Source of the DNA: an uncultured Candidatus Saccharibacteria bacterium
Lineage (GTDB): Bacteria > Patescibacteriota > Minisyncoccia > 2-02-FULL-40-12
Reading direction: 5' to 3'
DNA length: 64,000 nucleotides
NCBI GenBank assembly: GCA_964368135.1
Contig: CAYIZI010000001.1
Span: forward strand, 42,926-106,925
Under the pieces are notes generated by a model. It was given only the letters and a program-made list of their open reading frames with translations. It was not told where the DNA came from and did no database searches. Made by a program: the position numbers and the translations under genes. Each line of letters begins with the position of its first letter. Position 1 is the first letter of the stretch. This document shows positions 54,184-60,501 of this stretch, piece by piece.

Positions 54184-55785
54184 TCAATTGCAAACTGGTG
54201 ATGGTTCAATAATCCGCAGTTTGCTTTGTTGGTTAGTTACTGTGTAGATAACGTCGTTCTCATAAGCAAAGTTTTGCGGGTCTACTGAAAAGTTATAGGG
54301 ACAGGTATCCCATCTCTCAATATTGGCCGGATCACTTACATCTAAAACAAGAAAGGGGTCGTTGGGATCTCTTGTTGTAACAAAAGCTAACTGTCCTGAA
54401 ACTTTAATGCCGGTAATGCCCGCACCCTGGTTATAATTAAAAAAATCATTAAAGTTTACTGACCCAGGAGCAGAAGATAAGTCGTTAGTATCAACAACGT
54501 AAAAATCTCGGTCATTCCCTGGATTTGAACGTCCTATTCCAAGATAAATTTTATTTCCAATAACATATAAATCTCTCCCGTCTTTTGAACTTGCCGAACC
54601 GTCGGCTCTTTCCGCATCAAAGGTACCGGCAATAGTTATATTTAAAGGATTGGCTATATTAAGAACGATAATTTCCTCGTTATTAGAAGAAGTGGCAAGA
54701 TAGGCCCTATCCTCTCTTACTTCAATATCATTGATATTATGATCTACTTGGGTAGAGCCTGTATTCCCAAGGTGAACGGGGTTTGTTGGATCAGTTACAT
54801 CAAAAATGTGAAACTCCGAACCGCCAACTCTATGGGTACCTATATAAATGCGGTTATTGTAATAAGCAATGCTTCGTCCGCCGGGACAAGTAAAATTACA
54901 AGTTCCACTTACTCCGGGTAAAGACACAGAAGCAATTTGAATAGGCGCCGCGGGGTCAGTCACATCAATTACCTGGAGTTGGCCGCTGGCTTTTTCATTG
55001 CCGCTGCCACTGCCGTCATCCGGATCGTAAAAATCTCCGTGGATACTGGCCGCAAAAATATAACGTTTATTTAACGATTGAAAATCAACGGCCACTAAAT
55101 CAACAATCCCGTTTAGTTTTTTACCTGGTCCCCAATCCACCCCGATACTCCCTAAAAAAACTGGGTTTGAAGTATTAGCCGCATCATAAATAAATAGGTC
55201 ATCTAAATTTTCATTAGAATCATAGACCCCTAAGTAAACAATCTTATTCAGGACGGCAATACTTTCACCGTTAACAGTATTTATAATAATATTGTCGTGA
55301 TTGGTTACGGGATTCCTCCAATTATCATTTGACGGAGATATTATGGAACAATTACTGCCAGCATCAATAAAAGCTTTTAGACTGCCGATAATACTAGAAA
55401 TACTTATTGATTGAGGCCTGTTTTCCACATCCCAATCAATAGTACTTTTAATTTCTTTGACACAGGGAGAGATATCTAATACTTCTAAAGTTTTAGTGTA
55501 AATGTCAGTCGTAGTCGGAGTTGTAGAAATAATGGAGTTAAATTCTCCGACTGTACCACGAGATTGAGCTCGAGTATTCTCAAGTTCCTCTTGAGCAAAA
55601 TACAAAGCTTCCTGATTTGTCTCGGTGTCTATTTCGGTTGACTGACCGCCAAACAAAACCATTATCACCGCGGAAATCGTCAAAACGAAAATAAACATCG
55701 CAATCATAATTTCCATTGTGGTCAGACCGCTTTCTAACCCGCTCTGGCGCTTAAGTTTCTTAGTAATTGATCCGGCCTTGTTCAT
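54184..55785 (-). CDS. Large pilin-like protein: prepilin N-terminus fused to an LVIVD-repeat beta-propeller-like domain (candidate pilus tip adhesin)
   Basis: SG|LTTMEIMIAMFIFVLTI prepilin signal with Glu+5; repeated (D/N)(I/V)xV.... segments (AYLATSSNNEEIIVLNIANP, LAFVTTRDPNDPFLVLDVSDP) typical of LVIVD propellers; 533 aa. Confidence 0.6.
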   Translation of the reverse strand: MNKAGSITKKLKRQSGLESGLTTMEIMIAMFIFVLTISAVIMVLFGGQSTEIDTETNQEALYFAQEELENTRAQSRGTVGEFNSIISTTPTTTDIYTKTLEVLDISPCVKEIKSTIDWDVENRPQSISISSIIGSLKAFIDAGSNCSIISPSNDNWRNPVTNHDNIIINTVNGESIAVLNKIVYLGVYDSNENLDDLFIYDAANTSNPVFLGSIGVDWGPGKKLNGIVDLVAVDFQSLNKRYIFAASIHGDFYDPDDGSGSGNEKASGQLQVIDVTDPAAPIQIASVSLPGVSGTCNFTCPGGRSIAYYNNRIYIGTHRVGGSEFHIFDVTDPTNPVHLGNTGSTQVDHNINDIEVREDRAYLATSSNNEEIIVLNIANPLNITIAGTFDAERADGSASSKDGRDLYVIGNKIYLGIGRSNPGNDRDFYVVDTNDLSSAPGSVNFNDFFNYNQGAGITGIKVSGQLAFVTTRDPNDPFLVLDVSDPANIERWDTCPYNFSVDPQNFAYENDVIYTVTNQQSKLRIIEPSPVCN

Positions 55786-56233
55786 TGATGGTTATGGTTA
55801 AGGGAGGTTTACCCACGCTAATCAGAGTAATCTCAAGCGGCGCCGCCGCTACATTCCCAGTCAGCTGCTCAAAATTTATAATCCCGGACCAGGCTATCCC
55901 TAATCTTTCTATCGGGATACTTTCATTGCTTGGATCATTTGGAACGTAAACTGAACCTTCAAAAATTACAAGCTCTTTTTTAGCGTCATCATAATAAACG
56001 CTGTAAGACGACTGATTAATATTGCTGACGGCCTGATTCCTGGCTTTCTGCAAAATACTTATCACTATATCTTTGTCGTAATTAAAAGAATAGGTTCGGT
56101 AAAAATCCATACTCAAAAAAAGGCCGATGCCCATTAGCAGAACCAAAATACCGATGGCAACCAGAATTTCAATAATAGAGAATCCGTTACTACGCCGGCC
56201 GGCTAAATTAAGGCGAGAGGTTCCTGGTAATTT
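55760..56233 (-). CDS. Type IV minor pilin
   Basis: SNG|FSIIEILVAIGILVLLMGIGL; start trimmed to MKLPG at 56233. Confidence 0.65.
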   Translation of the reverse strand, partial: KLPGTSRLNLAGRRSNGFSIIEILVAIGILVLLMGIGLFLSMDFYRTYSFNYDKDIVISILQKARNQAVSNINQSSYSVYYDDAKKELVIFEGSVYVPNDPSNESIPIERLGIAWSGIINFEQLTGNVAAAPLEITLISVGKPPLTITINEQGRINY

Positions 56234-57278
56234 CATAAATCGGGGTAATGATTGAAACAGCAATAAAGCCGACAATCAAACCCATAAACACCATCAAAGC
56301 CGGCTCAAGGATCGTAGATAAATTCTTAGTCAGTTCGTCCATCTCGGCCTCATACATTTCGGCCAGATAAAGTAAAGTTTCATCCAAGCGGCCGGTTGAT
56401 TCGCCGATTTCAATCAAATGAGTCAAAATATGCGGGAAAAGGTCTGGCCTTCTTTCCATCTGACTGACTATTTTTTCGCCCTTAACCACGCACTTTGAAA
56501 TCTTCACAAGTTCGTTTCGGTAGACCAGATTAGTGGTCGTCTGCGAGGCAATTAAAAAAGCATTAATCACTCTGATGTCGCTTTTGATCAAAATTCCAAG
56601 GGTCCGGCAAATATTGGCCAAGTGATAATTCTTGAATATCGGACCAATCAAAGGCATTTTAAAGCTGGCCAGGTGCAGAAGATAGCGAAACTTATCCGAA
56701 GTCCTAAAAAAAACAATTAAACCAACCGCCAAAACAATAATCCCGGCAACTAAAAACAACCCATAGGCCTTCAAAAAATCAACGCTGGCAATCAGGGCCC
56801 GGGTAGTAAGGGGCAGGTTCACATTCAAACTGGCGAAAATCGGCAAAATCTTCGGGAAAATATAAAGAGTTAAAAGGCCGGCCAAACCTAAAGTAGCAAT
56901 AATTATAAAAATCGGATAAACCAGCGCGCCCATCACTTTACGCTGCAGGGCCTGCTTTTTCTTCATCTCATCGGCCAAATAGTTCAGGTTCTCGTCCAGA
57001 GTACCGCTCTCTTCGCCGACCCGAATCAAATTAATGGCCAGCTGGTCAAAGTTATGCCGAAACTTAGCCAAACTGCTTGAAAGATACTGACCGTTGGAAA
57101 CGTCTTTAATCACCTGGTCAAGAACCAATGACTTGGCGCCCGATGGACTTTGTTTTCTTAAAATATTTAAACTCTGGAGCAAGGGCACGCCGGCCTTAAC
57201 CAAAAAAGACAGCCGCTTGGCAAAAAGGGTTTTCTCTTTTACGGAAATTCTGGTAAATAACTCTCTTAATCTACTCAT
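56208..57278 (-). CDS. pilC: Type IV pilus assembly platform protein PilC (GspF family)
   Basis: Two T2SSF repeats, three TM helices; 356 aa. Confidence 0.8.
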   Translation of the reverse strand: MSRLRELFTRISVKEKTLFAKRLSFLVKAGVPLLQSLNILRKQSPSGAKSLVLDQVIKDVSNGQYLSSSLAKFRHNFDQLAINLIRVGEESGTLDENLNYLADEMKKKQALQRKVMGALVYPIFIIIATLGLAGLLTLYIFPKILPIFASLNVNLPLTTRALIASVDFLKAYGLFLVAGIIVLAVGLIVFFRTSDKFRYLLHLASFKMPLIGPIFKNYHLANICRTLGILIKSDIRVINAFLIASQTTTNLVYRNELVKISKCVVKGEKIVSQMERRPDLFPHILTHLIEIGESTGRLDETLLYLAEMYEAEMDELTKNLSTILEPALMVFMGLIVGFIAVSIITPIYEITRNLSP

Positions 57279-58503
57279 TGATCACTCTCAAAACTTCCTC
57301 CAGAGTGGTAATGCCTTCTTTGGCTTTCCTGATGCCGTCCTCAACTATAGTGGTCATCCCATTGCCGGAAGCGATTAACTTAATCTCATTGGCCGAAGCC
57401 CTCCTTAAAAAAGCTTCTCTGACCATATTGTCTACAACCATCACTTCAAATATGCCGACTCGGCCCTGAAAACCGGTCTCGCCGCATTTCTCACAGCCCC
57501 TGCCGTAATAAAACTGCCAGTTGGAATCTGAACCCAAAACCGAATTCTGGAAAAAATTTTCCAAGCTCTTCTTTTCGGCGTCGGTCAGCTTTCTTAAAGT
57601 TTTGCATTTGGGGCAAATTTTCCTGACCAATCTCTGGGCAATGGCCAAGTTGACCGTTGAAGCAACCAGGTACGGCTCAACTTTCATATCTAATAATCTG
57701 GGCAAAGTGGTGGCCGCGTCATTGGTATGCAAAGTGGACAAAAGCAGGTGGCCGGTTAAAGCGGTGTTGACAGCTAAGGCCGCGGTCTCAACATCTCTGA
57801 TTTCGCCAACCATTATTATATCGGGGTCCTGCCGTAAAATTGACCTTAGTCCGTTGGCAAAGTTTAAGCCGACCCGGGAATTAACCTGAATCTGTTCAAT
57901 TCCTTCAACCGCGTATTCAATCGGGTCCTCCACCGTGACAATTGAAACATCTTTGTTGTTTAAAAATTTTAAAACGGTGTAAAGAGTGGTGGTTTTGCCA
58001 GATCCGGTCGGTCCGGTGGCTAAAATCATGCCGTGACTTTTTTTGGCGGCCCTCAAAACCTTTTCCTTGTCTGACGGACTAAAGCCAAGTTTATCCAAAG
58101 TGTATTCTTCTTCCTTATCTGATAAAAGACGCAAAACCGCGTTCTCGCCGTAATAGGTTGGAGCTACGGAAACGCGAATATCAATCGGCGCCTGCCCGTC
58201 AAAAGCAATACTGAACCGGCCGTCTTGAGCAGTCTGGTGTTCGTCAGTCCTTAAGTTTGATAAAATTTTAATTCTGGAAACCACCTCTGATTTGATTTCT
58301 CTTGGAAAAGTAAAAAAATCCTGCAAAACGCCGTCAATTCTAAACCTGATTCTGACTCCCTTTGTGCCCGGGTCAATATGAATATCCGAAGCCCGCGAGT
58401 TGTGGGCGTATTCTATTAAGTTGTCCACCAGGCTGATTAAGGAAATCTGTTCAGAGTTTTGCTCAATTTCCCGCTCAATTTTATTTCTTAGTTCTGTTGA
58501 CAT
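57271..58503 (-). CDS. pilB: Type IV pilus assembly ATPase PilB/GspE (no N1 domain)
   Basis: Walker A GPTGSGKTTTL, Asp/His boxes, tetracysteine CPKC...CEKC zinc motif characteristic of PilB/GspE rather than PilT; 410 aa. Confidence 0.8.
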   Translation of the reverse strand: MSTELRNKIEREIEQNSEQISLISLVDNLIEYAHNSRASDIHIDPGTKGVRIRFRIDGVLQDFFTFPREIKSEVVSRIKILSNLRTDEHQTAQDGRFSIAFDGQAPIDIRVSVAPTYYGENAVLRLLSDKEEEYTLDKLGFSPSDKEKVLRAAKKSHGMILATGPTGSGKTTTLYTVLKFLNNKDVSIVTVEDPIEYAVEGIEQIQVNSRVGLNFANGLRSILRQDPDIIMVGEIRDVETAALAVNTALTGHLLLSTLHTNDAATTLPRLLDMKVEPYLVASTVNLAIAQRLVRKICPKCKTLRKLTDAEKKSLENFFQNSVLGSDSNWQFYYGRGCEKCGETGFQGRVGIFEVMVVDNMVREAFLRRASANEIKLIASGNGMTTIVEDGIRKAKEGITTLEEVLRVINE

Positions 58504-58583
58504 TAGAGAAAAATTAATCTTAATCGTATAATCTTATATCTTTCCTTTGAATATAGTCAACAAAAAAAGCCCAAAGAGCCATG

Positions 58584-58614
58584 GAACATAATAAATTCAG
58601 AAAAGGTGCGGGGT
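58584..58614 (+). repeat. 31-nt repeat copy A (gaacataataaattcagaaaaggtgcggggt), overlapping the 3' end of the DedA-like gene
   Basis: Identical to 59430-59460. Confidence 0.7.
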
Positions 58615-59181
58615 GTATAGGCCAATAAACGCAGCCAGGGTGTTAAAAACGATATTGCCTAAAGTCATCGGAATCATCAGCCGCCAGTAAGGATAGTGAA
58701 TAAAACCAAGGGGCATGACCACCAAATCATCAGGCAGAGGGATAAAAGCGCCGTAGCTGAAAATGGCCAGACTGGCCAGCCACTTGGGATGAGACAAAGA
58801 CCATTCATAAGCCCGGTCAATGGTTTTTTGAATTCTTGAAGGGATAATTTCCCGGCCATGATATGCAATAACATAAGAAGTTGAATCACCCAAGAAAAGG
58901 CCGATGCCGGCCACAAAACCCAAAAGAAATGGGTTTAACCCGCCGGCGGCAAAAGTCATCACAAAGAGATAATAAGGAATCGGAACAAAGGTTGAGATGC
59001 CGCCCAAGAAAGCCAAAACAAAGGTAATCAAATAGCCGTTTCGGACGCCCAGAATCTCAATAATGTCAGCCGGCGGAATCCGGTAAATAAAAACTGTCCA
59101 GGCGACAAAAAGAGCAATCAGGATTAAAAAAGGAAATTGGGCTTTACTAACTATCCCCCGCACCTTTTCTGAATAGGTCAA
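58597..59181 (-). CDS. DedA/VTT-domain family membrane protein (YqaA-like)
   Basis: GLFLGDSTSYVIAYHG DedA-type motif, 5-6 TM; both its TTG start region and its last codons are encoded by copies of the 31-nt repeat. Confidence 0.55.
   Translation of the reverse strand: MTYSEKVRGIVSKAQFPFLILIALFVAWTVFIYRIPPADIIEILGVRNGYLITFVLAFLGGISTFVPIPYYLFVMTFAAGGLNPFLLGFVAGIGLFLGDSTSYVIAYHGREIIPSRIQKTIDRAYEWSLSHPKWLASLAIFSYGAFIPLPDDLVVMPLGFIHYPYWRLMIPMTLGNIVFNTLAAFIGLYTPHLF
59155..59174 (-). repeat. Inverted partial copy B of the 31-nt repeat (ccccgcaccttttctgaat), at the GIY-YIG stop / DedA start
   Basis: Reverse complement matches attcagaaaaggtgcgggg of copies A and C (19-20 nt). Confidence 0.6.
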
Positions 59182-59435
59182 GACGACAAACTGCCGAGTA
59201 TTCTTCTCTTAAGCTGAGAATATACTTTACCGAACTGTTTCAGTTTTTTCTCACGGTTTCTGACGTCTTGACCGTTTAGATAACCTTCACAATAAACTAA
59301 CTTCCAAGGAATGAAAGCTTTAGTCGACCGATTATATCCTAAATTATGTTCTCTTATCCTTTTTAAAATATTAGTTGTTATGCCAATATATAATTTCTTG
59401 TTTTTATCGCTTTTCAATAAATAGACATAGAACAT
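59178..59435 (-). CDS. Small GIY-YIG nuclease-family protein (COG2827/YhbQ-like)
   Basis: MFYVYLLKSDKNKKLYIGITTNILKRIREHNLGYNRSTKAFIPWKLVYCE; 85 aa; the N-terminal 110 codons of the tracked ORF overlap the upstream gene out of frame and were trimmed. Confidence 0.7.
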   Translation of the reverse strand: MFYVYLLKSDKNKKLYIGITTNILKRIREHNLGYNRSTKAFIPWKLVYCEGYLNGQDVRNREKKLKQFGKVYSQLKRRILGSLSS

Positions 59436-59460
59436 AATAAATTCAGAAAAGGTGCGGGGT
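59430..59460 (+). repeat. 31-nt repeat copy C, between the membrane-protein stop (59464) and the GIY-YIG start (59435)
   Basis: Identical to 58584-58614. Confidence 0.7.
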
Positions 59461-59463
59461 TCA

Positions 59464-60501
59464 CTATTTGTTTTGATTCTTGAAAGACGGATAGCGGTCT
59501 GGGTCAATGGTTCGGCTGAAGCAAGTTCTTTCAGCGTCATGGAGCCAGCTTTCTTCAGTAATGCCAGGGTAAGGATAATAAAGCTCGCGGGGGGCCAAAG
59601 GCACTGGTTTTGCTCCGCTCTTTTCCGGCTCCTGCTTGTTTGAGGTCTTAAAAGTGGCGCAAAGCTCAAACTGCAAAGTACCGCGAACTCGGTATTCATA
59701 CGAGTCCCCTGTTTCCGGGTCAGCCGGCGGGATGAAGCCACGGATATCGTCGCGAAGCTGATCAAGATTTTGAGGCAATGTTTCTTTGGCCTGCCAAAAG
59801 TTTATAATTTCATTCTGAATCGCCTGTAGATCCGAAATTCTCCGCTCATCAAATCTCTTCAAGCGCTGGGCAATTGGCGAACCGGCCGTAACAAAGCCGA
59901 TGACGATGAAAAAAATGCCAGCCAGGGAAACCAACCAAACGAACCATCTCATTTTCGGGTCTTTAGCGGCCGGAACTTTCCGCCGGATATTCCACAAGTA
60001 ATAGGTAAACACCGCTAAAGCAATAACCAGAACGGTCAAAATCTTAAGCACAAATTGAGTGGTTAAATCTCCATTAAGATAGCGATAAATAAGAGCGATT
60101 AAATCAGCGACAATAATGATGGCGGCAACAAAAAGCGTAAAATGCAAAAGCCATTTCCTGACTTTTAATTCTTTTTTCTCGGGATTCCGTTCAAGGTCTT
60201 TCTGAAGATAGGAGTTATACCAAAGATACAAAGGGAAAACCACGATCAGGGTAGCCAAAGGCCATCTGATGGCCTGGCGGTTATAAAAATCGTAGCTTAA
60301 AACATCGGGGAAATATATATCAATCAAACCGAAAATTAAAACACCAAAAGAAATTACCAGGACATAAAGGCCGATAATGACCAAGAGTTGGCCAAACACG
60401 TCTTTGCTCGTCGAAGGTTCCGCCCCCGACGTAAGTCGGGGTTGCGGAATCGCTGTCGGCCCGGTTTTTGCAGAATCAGTCATTGTTTTAAATTCTACCA
60501 A
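59464..60501 (-). CDS. Hypothetical polytopic membrane protein
   Basis: 345 aa with ~6 TM helices and a C-terminal soluble domain; no family recognised. Confidence 0.45.
   Translation of the reverse strand: MVEFKTMTDSAKTGPTAIPQPRLTSGAEPSTSKDVFGQLLVIIGLYVLVISFGVLIFGLIDIYFPDVLSYDFYNRQAIRWPLATLIVVFPLYLWYNSYLQKDLERNPEKKELKVRKWLLHFTLFVAAIIIVADLIALIYRYLNGDLTTQFVLKILTVLVIALAVFTYYLWNIRRKVPAAKDPKMRWFVWLVSLAGIFFIVIGFVTAGSPIAQRLKRFDERRISDLQAIQNEIINFWQAKETLPQNLDQLRDDIRGFIPPADPETGDSYEYRVRGTLQFELCATFKTSNKQEPEKSGAKPVPLAPRELYYPYPGITEESWLHDAERTCFSRTIDPDRYPSFKNQNK

Follow-up and report, generated by a model that had tools for sequence, protein, structure and literature searches.

A GIY-YIG nuclease gene between terminal inverted repeats as a probable transposon-like element at the DedA gene of a groundwater Saccharibacteria bacterium

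We analysed a 64,000-nt stretch of DNA (hereafter, the window; GenBank assembly GCA_964368135.1, contig CAYIZI010000001.1, positions 42,926 to 106,925 of the forward strand) from an uncultured Candidatus Saccharibacteria bacterium, belonging to the candidate phyla radiation (CPR), recovered from the 0.1-µm filter fraction of a Hainich groundwater metagenome. Next to a gene for a DedA membrane protein, the window probably contains one complete copy and one solo end of a transposon-like element whose only gene encodes a GIY-YIG nuclease and which would move by a hairpin-directed mechanism; we put the probability of this reading, mechanism included, at roughly 70%. The reading is carried by the anatomy of the unit, by the conservation of this anatomy and the covariation of its arms at homologous loci, by 4-bp target duplications, by derivatives lacking the open reading frame (ORF), by empty sites and by the reshaping of neighbouring genes.

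Three copies of one repeat are found in the window, all at the GIY-YIG/DedA locus, and they were lettered copy C (59430-59460), copy B (59156-59174, inverted) and copy A (58584-58614). On the minus strand, the order is DUF5671, copy C, GIY-YIG, copy B, DedA, copy A, PilB and the other type IV pilus genes. Both these neighbouring genes and the best-matching named homologues are indicative of a CPR bacterium. A first, sequence-only reading of this DNA had pointed out identical 31-mers at copies A and C, and these are exact: GAACATAATAAATTCAGAAAAGGTGCGGGGT occurs exactly twice in the window (58584-58614 and 59430-59460) and not once in 100 dinucleotide-preserving shuffles, and its 18-nt core occurs three times with no mismatches, the third time inverted (59156-59173), a count that was reached in 0 of 100 shuffles. 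The inverted copy, which had been described as 20 nt long (59155-59174), exists but is perfect over 19 nt (59156-59174), with position 59155 mismatched; in the repeat search, the 19-nt arms 59156-59174 and 59441-59459 are 100% complementary, and the same holds for 59156-59174 and 58595-58613. The direct repeat can be extended to 42 nt with 93% identity (58573-58614 versus 59419-59460), where the 11 added nucleotides overlap with a weak terminator-like hairpin and may be a chance similarity. The identical arrangement is present in L001 and L002 (L-numbers denote the metagenomic contigs or loci compared, and P-numbers representative proteins), and because these are independent assemblies from replicate samples, it is not an assembly artefact.

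Read on the coding strand, CCCCGCACCTTTTCTGAAT is followed by TTATT and then by the ATG of the nuclease gene, and ATTCAGAAAAGGTGCGGGG lies 3 nt past its stop; because of this placement before the start and after the stop, copies C and B are terminal inverted repeats that enclose the nuclease gene. The complete GIY-YIG element measures 304 bp (59156..59459, minus strand) and consists of the left arm, a 5-nt leader, an ORF of 85 aa, a 3-nt spacer and the right arm. The left terminal inverted repeat, which is the core of copy C, occupies 59441..59459 (minus strand, CCCCGCACCTTTTCTGAAT, from the arm search and covariation); the single-domain nuclease gene lies at 59178..59435 (minus strand, stop included, Pfam PF01541); and the right terminal inverted repeat, copy B, lies at 59156..59174 (minus strand, ATTCAGAAAAGGTGCGGGG, from the arm search) and reads SEKVRG in the DedA frame. 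The start codon of the nuclease is indeed inside copy C, as had been noticed (ATG at 59435-59433), but copy B does not begin exactly at the stop, since it starts 3 nt past the TGA (59178-59180). The terminal inverted repeats that bound the unit in the window (19 bp, 100% complementary) let the single-stranded element fold as a panhandle closed by a 19-bp stem, with a z-score of -9.0 as RNA and -6.5 as DNA. In the annotation of the source contig, the GIY-YIG gene (59178-59435) is absent and falls in a gap between called genes at L001:4718-5001, and an exact look-up of the window nuclease protein found no record.

The same construction recurs far outside the window. Virtually every GIY-YIG homologue of the 44 loci compared has CCCCGCACCTTTT and six variable bases (N6) upstream of the gene, and N6' and AAAAGGTGCGGGG downstream. 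The first hint of this came from the protein alignment, where the C-terminal tail ...(E/Q)KVRG of many homologues is the translation of GAAAAGGTGCGGGG, and where DPAPF or TPHLL, in several N-terminal extensions made by gene callers, is that of ACCCCGCACCTTTT. Among 41 elements, arm pairs 1-13 are conserved (the 13-bp core CCCCGCACCTTTT), whereas pairs 14-19 are hypervariable and show all four pair types, yet are 80-95% Watson-Crick. Over pairs 1-19 the Watson-Crick share is 80-100% and it drops to 29% at position 20, so the repeat is exactly 19 bp long. Covariation amounts to 133 double-change cells versus 53 in shuffles (reached in 0 of 500 shuffles), and the arms pair at 89.7% versus approximately 50% in slid controls. 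Since the fast-evolving 6-bp segment stays near-perfectly complementary, we argue that pairing itself is selected or regenerated, which would be expected if the hairpin is the substrate. With RNAalifold (32 full elements), the terminal stem was the sole robust conserved structure, and a weak internal helix may be coding-driven. The leader is 0-18 nt long in 31 of the 32 elements with a placeable ORF; in L024, where a mini-element is inserted in it, it reaches 52 nt. The stop codon lies inside the right arm in 24 of 32 elements, and in five cases the ORF runs through the right arm and ends at the TGA of a flanking TTGA. Up to four elements lie within 2.4 kb of L024, the highest number among related contigs.

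Conserved pairing of this kind could also act at the level of RNA. The arms would then pair in the transcript as an RNase III-type processing, stabilising or translational-control stem that excises or insulates the GIY-YIG message, and mobility of the DNA would be secondary. The sense RNA is closed by the 19-bp stem (z -9.0), the arms covary strongly, and the element sits within a co-oriented string of genes where read-through transcription is likely; moreover, the rRNA genes of CPR bacteria contain non-intron insertions with GIY-YIG ORFs, and there removal at the RNA level would be needed (PMC11270868). The mismatches do not fit this role well, as A-C pairs, which are unpaired in the sense RNA, are nearly as frequent as the G-U-compatible ones (8 versus 13; in full, 13 G-T/T-G, 8 A-C/C-A and 4 other). 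Additionally, ORF-less derivatives that keep the arms and the duplications are hard to square with control of an mRNA, SsnA, a hairpin-directed GIY-YIG nuclease discussed below, does not bind RNA (PMC11893778), and an Rfam scan of 58300-59800 returned no family match, only a sub-threshold snoRNA chance hit. We consider a primarily RNA-level function improbable.

The same 19-bp arms are found in dozens of unrelated contigs from phylum-level CPR groups, and a profile search of 1.84 billion representative proteins gave 5,035 clusters (50% identity) at E <= 1e-10. The literature searched contained no description of repeat-bounded GIY-YIG elements in CPR bacteria, so that this is apparently a large and undescribed family of hairpin-bounded GIY-YIG elements. 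A scan of GTDB genomes with the 19-mer of the window returned 4 hits, against an estimated chance expectation of approximately 4 for a sequence of this length in 596 Gb. Even so, it led to L007, where the same arms form a pair with no ORF, and to L004, a solo end; a match in Liberibacter is probably due to chance.

For counting duplications, the element ends were fixed at NCCCGCACC...GGTGCGGGN'. Direct repeats of at least 4 bp stand immediately outside the arms in 30 of 43 elements, compared with 14.6% of mismatched flank pairs, and their most frequent length is 4 bp. TTGA is the duplicated sequence in 16 elements; with TTGA sites set aside, duplications are still present in 14 of 27 (versus 4.4%), and the others include TCAA, TAAA, TGTG, TTAT, GTTTA, CATGAA, CTGTGG and GCAGGGC. 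The left flanks follow the pattern T-N-N-A in 30 of 43 cases versus 7.7% in the background (p = 6e-24). A good promoter of the form TTGACA-N16-18-TATAAT is created by 11 of 34 right flanks, and the right-junction TTGAC could have been taken as a mere host -35 box; we rejected this because these four bases also stand duplicated on the left, and because elements with other duplicated sequences exist; target duplication is therefore the better reading.

Nine ORF-less elements of 28-142 bp have the same arms, and seven of them are flanked by a 4-5-bp duplication; one, in an Azambacteria genome, carries the exact 19-mer of the window between TCAA flanks. A 30-nt hairpin element is present in L024, with TAAA duplicated, and not in the related L011. 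The ORF-less element of L007 was considered as an internal-deletion derivative of a gene-bearing one, which is unsupported, as its interior has no convincing homology to the gene-bearing form. Solo or truncated ends occur in L004 and L008 as well, and orthologous sites are polymorphic for presence and absence in three comparisons, window/L003, L065/L069 and the L024 mini-element/L011. As a side observation, ORF-less elements of approximately 110 bp (L011:3273-3385, L024:115-224, L032:946-1056 and L038:1416-1526) have a common internal GC hairpin with a CTTC or GAAG loop (e.g., GGCGGCTTCGCC) and adjoin GIY-YIG elements in either orientation.

The small mobile GIY-YIG cassette that had been suspected from the sequence thus gains support from the repeat-bounded unit in unrelated contexts at 44 loci, the duplications at 30 of 43 and an empty site in L003, although its parsing has to be changed: the bounds are the inverted pair C/B (304 bp) and not the direct 31-mers A/C, and DedA lies outside the element. 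The DedA/VTT-domain membrane protein gene (58597..59181, minus strand; PF09335) scores 43.5 bits against a cutoff of 33.9, its VTT domain being above the Pfam gathering score, and encodes 194 aa if read from the TTG at 59181, or 188 aa with the GTG at 59163 as its start. Copy B had been thought to encode the DedA N-terminus, and copy A its C-terminus and stop. Both proved right, as the TTG (59181-59179) abuts copy B, the alternative GTG (59163-59161) lies within it, and the TPHLF codons and the TGA (58599-58597) lie within copy A. The protein of the window begins with MTYSEKVRGIVSK... and ends with ...LYTPHLF*, whereas its orthologue without a GIY-YIG neighbour, which is 85% identical and comes from L003, a short contig from the same aquifer sample, begins with MKVNR... 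and ends with ...LYAPI*. In L003 the site is empty: 17 nt separate the DUF5671 C-terminus from the DedA ATG AAA GTT..., and in the alignment to the window neither a GIY-YIG gene nor any of copies A, B and C is found at the DedA ends. The check on repeat occurrence and DedA termini therefore favours insertion, since the repeat is found elsewhere and the orthologue has other termini. By these alignments, DedA is a host gene, both ends of which are supplied by element sequence.

As for the history of the locus, a first insertion probably occurred between the DUF5671 and DedA genes and replaced the native ATG region of DedA, which now starts from a TTG or GTG that lies within or beside the right arm. 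At the 3' end of DedA, a second copy probably inserted and was later truncated, with the left arm plus 12 nt, up to ATGTTC, remaining, and this remnant now encodes the last five residues of DedA and the stop. This remnant is the solo left end, copy A (58584..58614, minus strand, recognised by its 31-mer match), in which the arm (58595-58613) is followed by TTATTATGTTC (58584-58594), so that it extends through the ATG and one further codon; the sequence at its left junction, TACA|CCCC, agrees with the T-N-N-A target pattern. Downstream of copy A, tblastn found no GIY-YIG coding remnant, and what lies beyond is a weak terminator-like hairpin and a PilB promoter-like site, with no remains of an ORF. 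On the simplest reading, copy A is what is left of a second element that entered at the 3' end of DedA, before a deletion truncated it and also took the native last codons. Because copies A and C are identical at 31 of 31 positions, we argue that they belong to the same young sub-lineage. A repeat-mediated rearrangement, the other option offered by the sequence-only reading, is unnecessary for the C-B unit and could still account for the origin of copy A. Distant DedA homologues (P0009 and P0010) were tried as a guide to copy A and were uninformative, with no conserved synteny.

The identity of copies A and C over 31 nt would also fit recent local copying with no mobile element at all, in which a segment of 31-42 nt was copied to a place 846 bp away, through slippage or illegitimate recombination, with the inverted copy as a by-product, and the window element is indeed without a target duplication. 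However, homologous genes bounded by the same 19-bp arms are found in dozens of unrelated contigs of phylum-level CPR groups, the empty site in L003 is without all three copies, and the flanks of the 44 loci together with the target duplications already contradict this explanation, which we regard as hardly credible.

A sister lineage in which the nuclease is joined to prepilins provides, on the sequences compared, strong evidence for insertion of the transposon type. In-frame GIY-YIG-prepilin fusions make up 44 of the best 150 of the 5,035 clusters, with junctions such as ...KSGAG|FTLIE (P0082-P0222). Four fusion genes followed at the DNA level (elements at L065:2480-2775, L076:1485-1800, L077:311-640 and L078:270-600) contain the same kind of element with the arm variant CCCCGCACCATTT, whose insertion point in the Phe(+1)-Thr codons follows TTTA or TTCA. 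L078 and L077 keep their original leader (MNKG, ...ISG) upstream, with TTTA on both sides; L076 keeps its leader upstream as well, and its left and right flanks are TTCA and TTTA; these three loci share a 4-bp TTYA repeat on both sides, and L065 has neither a leader remnant nor a duplication. At all four loci, the right arm (GGTGCGGGG, i.e., G-A-G), in frame with the nuclease, rebuilds a Gly|Phe cleavage site. The orthologous pilin gene without an element, which is the empty site for L065, is found in L069 with the leader MKKG|FTLIE. A related case is L005, which is syntenic with the PilC-pseudopilin genes of the window and has a solo right end, with the exact 19-mer of the window, in the pseudopilin leader: at L005:3693-3760, four tandem AATTTTC units precede the solo right arm, and the segment is translated as ...FKFRKGAG|FSIIEV, whereas the orthologue in the window (55760-56275, minus strand) reads ...RRSNG|FSIIE. 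It is a speculation of ours that prepilin peptidase could make such insertions harmless. Separately, a Y1_Tnp (IS200/IS605-type) transposase gene was seen immediately upstream of the fusion in L077 (L077:1-275).

The nuclease of the window matches PF01541 with 55.2 bits against a cutoff of 22.6, as its sole domain and over residues 1-67 of 85, and the family-invariant residues Y5, Y16, G18, R26, H30, N31 and E62 are all present. Its AlphaFold model (pLDDT 91.6) has the GIY-YIG fold, with a catalytic domain and one long C-terminal helix; in structure it comes nearest to UPF0213 BH0048 and to the nuclease domain of Slx1, the UPF0213 proteins being the best solved relatives (E 4.4e-10), and the I-TevI catalytic domain gives a TMq of 0.55. 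No NCBIfam model exceeded its cutoff (TIGR01453, 19.4 bits versus 56). This GIY-YIG gene is the only ORF of the element, in which Pfam recognises no DDE, HUH, serine or tyrosine recombinase and no Y1_Tnp. The best plasmid match in tblastn is an Azospirillum gene (38.6% identity) flanked by canonical SRM hairpins, and hhalign of the family profile with this SRM-flanked homologue gave a probability of 98.7% (E 1.8e-16). The gene encodes a 97-aa GIY-YIG protein between sufB and sufC on the Azospirillum lipoferum plasmid AZO_p3 (L072), with a head-to-head pair of 28-nt SRM hairpins on each side (L072:477-563 and 903-989), and by its sequence we take the locus to be a textbook Ssn-type unit inside an operon.

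Ssn proteins are single-domain GIY-YIG proteins of approximately 94 aa that cleave single-stranded DNA (ssDNA) site-specifically beside a hairpin repeat, NTS/SRM (Chenal et al., Nat Commun 2025, PMC11893778). The ssn genes are flanked by these repeats and modulate natural transformation in Neisseria; the authors likened NTS-ssnA-NTS to an insertion sequence, and CPR/Patescibacteria hosts are unmentioned in their paper (PMC11893778). From this kinship comes the alternative that the locus is a domesticated Ssn-like system of ssDNA restriction, in which a host nuclease cuts incoming ssDNA at its cognate repeat. Copies A, B and C would be recognition sites in a repeat-gene-repeat order like that of the Neisseria NTS, and would serve to tune natural transformation or recombination of the DedA and type IV pilus region that they flank. 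The homology of the nuclease to an SRM-flanked Ssn-type gene speaks for this, as does the finding that SsnA lowers transformation by NTS-containing DNA (PMC11893778). Additionally, DedA is bracketed by copies B and A, the locus abuts a type IV pilus operon (of the DNA-uptake type), canonical SRM hairpins exist in other CPR contigs, only three copies are present in 64 kb, and the window element is without a target duplication. Duplications, empty sites, ORF-less derivatives and insertions within prepilin ORFs are, however, signatures of transposition and not of placed sites. We consider restriction as the primary role unlikely, and it is compatible with mobility in any case, since a mobile element could double as such a system.

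Returning to the transposon-like element, we infer from its relationship to SsnA that the arms would pair into a hairpin or panhandle in ssDNA, at replication forks or in incoming transforming DNA, and that the nuclease, a relative of the Ssn ssDNA nucleases, would recognise the stem and cut at its base. The GIY-YIG protein would thus be the mobilising enzyme and ssDNA its substrate, with integration at T-N-N-A sites and a 4-nt stagger that would yield the duplication, and with host repair and ligation presumably finishing the joining of strands. In the sister lineage, the right arm and the 4-bp duplication would rebuild ...G-A-G|F-T-L-I-E, so that prepilin peptidase would cut the parasite protein off the pilin; the insertion would then have no effect on the phenotype, in a protein-level counterpart to the removal of introns or inteins. 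The wider proposal, in which these are autonomous transposons of approximately 300 bp with a GIY-YIG nuclease acting on the hairpin of its own ends as their sole protein, together with a silent insertion removed by prepilin peptidase in the sister lineage, is put forward tentatively and is more doubtful.

Several points weigh against the transposon-like reading. GIY-YIG enzymes hydrolyse DNA and are not known for strand transfer, and the model contains no integration or ligation activity; because these enzymes are not known to join DNA, host ligation and repair or an unknown partner has to be invoked. The 64-kb window holds just one complete copy and one solo end, and its element is without a recognisable target duplication (left flank ..AGTGAA, right flank GATAGTT..). 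Relative to L003, the window copy looks like a plain insertion that lies between TGAA and (T)GATAGTT and lacks one T, the absence of which happens to put the GTG and TTG of the arm in frame with DedA. The arm mismatches have no strand bias, complementarity could also be selected at the level of RNA, and the published SRM search pattern has no match at the locus. Finally, P0058, a homologue on many contigs, always stands in the same context with small upstream differences, so there is no sign of recent jumps. It had been a candidate for showing such jumps, but all 10 listed places (24 contigs taken in) are essentially the same toxin-antitoxin island, whose genes include PIN, HicB and DUF433/DUF5615. 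In L052:2380-2900, P0058, a more divergent homologue, has another inverted repeat, with GTGCTCCAC right before the ATG and GTGGAGCAC approximately 70 nt past the stop.

If the GIY-YIG protein does mobilise the element, a hydrolytic single-domain nuclease of 85 aa plus host repair would be enough for transposition. This would be a transposase class unrepresented among known prokaryotic insertion sequences, and the elements would be among the smallest autonomous mobile elements. The duplications and empty sites would also directly support the open idea of the 2025 Ssn paper that hairpin-flanked ssn genes resemble insertion sequences. For the annotation of CPR genomes, the elements are numerous and systematically rewrite the starts, stops and leader peptides of their neighbours, and gene callers miss or merge them and call many extensions and fusions, so that they are probably under-annotated in CPR metagenome-assembled genomes. 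For biotechnology, a natural library of ssDNA nucleases with hairpin specificity could lie in the paired arm-enzyme variants and their hypervariable 6-bp segment.

Around the element, the window contains a gene for a DUF5671 membrane protein (59464..60501, minus strand; ORF and Pfam), the stops TAG TGA of which end 1 nt before the element. On the far side of copy A (58531..58580, minus strand), consensus matches alone suggest a weak terminator-like hairpin (58568-58580) and a sigma-70-like promoter, TTGACT-18-TAAGAT (58531-58560), in front of the PilB gene (57271..58503, minus strand; ORF and Pfam) and the rest of the type IV pilus operon.

Other observations concern single loci of the comparison. 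In L004:4886-4895, L012:3271-3280 and L008:~1320, the element end runs straight into TGTGGATAA, in which the DnaA-box consensus TTATCCACA stands as its reverse complement; this may be chance or a target preference. L016:1675-1720 and L014:3271-3280 have a GIY-YIG element in common, and L016 has approximately 42 nt extra downstream, with a hairpin CCGCCAGTTGGCGG bracketed by AAACCCAGTA/AAATCCAGTA, which may be a different small mobile hairpin. Viral contigs were considered as carriers and have distant GIY-YIG genes only, not this element; one of them, L074 (1400-1860), has such a gene (43% identity) between two tRNA genes whose identical 3' ends (...GGTCGGGAGTTCGAGTCCCCCCGGGCGCACCA) make direct repeats around it, and the tRNA 3' end ...CGCACCA is loosely like the core of the element arm.

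Among known systems, insertions in CPR rRNA genes share the host group and the small GIY-YIG ORFs; they are neither group I nor group II introns and were judged not to spread by homing, and terminal repeats or duplications are not described in the portions of that report that treat them (Tsurumaki et al. 2024, PMC11270868). Homing endonucleases such as I-TevI and Seg resemble the element in their GIY-YIG catalytic fold and selfish behaviour, but the CPR protein has no DNA-binding extension (85 versus approximately 245 aa), and the CPR elements have terminal repeats and target duplications and insert at many different sites, whereas homing proceeds by recombination into an allelic site. REP-RAYT and IS200/IS605 also combine a small nuclease or transposase gene with inverted palindromic repeats that occur gene-free as well, with ssDNA hairpins as the presumed substrate. 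Their enzyme is of the HUH/Y1 type, unlike the GIY-YIG protein recognised here by Pfam, and IS200/IS605 have subterminal hairpins and neither terminal inverted repeats nor target duplication, both of which the CPR family has. Correia elements, which are miniature inverted-repeat transposable elements of Neisseria, are short, with terminal inverted repeats and short target duplications, and compare with the ORF-less derivatives of 28-142 bp; Rickettsia palindromic elements are palindromic insertions that join host coding sequence, as do the arms read as DedA termini and pilin leaders. Neither has a cognate gene inside, whereas the full-length CPR element carries its own nuclease gene within 304 bp.

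The closest comparison is with Ssn and its repeats. In both, a single-domain GIY-YIG protein of about 85-97 aa is encoded by a gene bracketed by hairpin-forming sequences; the CPR outer stem (T/C)CCCGCAC resembles the SRM stem TCCCGCG/TCCCGCA; and the common right junction of the CPR elements, in reverse complement GTCAA|CCCC, is similar to the oriented NTS flank CGTCAT|TCCC. The SRM pattern HGTCWYN(0-2)YYVSBRHN(0-5)WNVSBRGN(0-2)RNCYNB is absent from the surroundings of the window gene and from the arms of all elements examined, and its matches, in L021 and L052-L060 only, lie away from GIY-YIG genes. As an observation apart, canonical NTS-like hairpins such as TGTCATCCCGCACTTGATGCGGGATCCAG do occur in CPR contigs (L021:737-765, L052 ~596-623 and similar ones in L053-L058 and L060), and the one in L021 is followed by a dRS3-like hairpin, ATTCCTGCTTTCGCAGGAAT. 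By analogy, we treat the window system as a CPR relative that may work like an Ssn/hairpin pair and not as a demonstrated member of cd10448 (GIY-YIG_unchar_3). Ssn genes have complete short hairpins on each side, whereas the CPR element has a single 19-bp hairpin split around its gene and its family, in CPR hosts, shows 4-bp duplications, empty sites and ORF-less derivatives; the CPR element family is therefore related to, but architecturally distinct from, Ssn/NTS.

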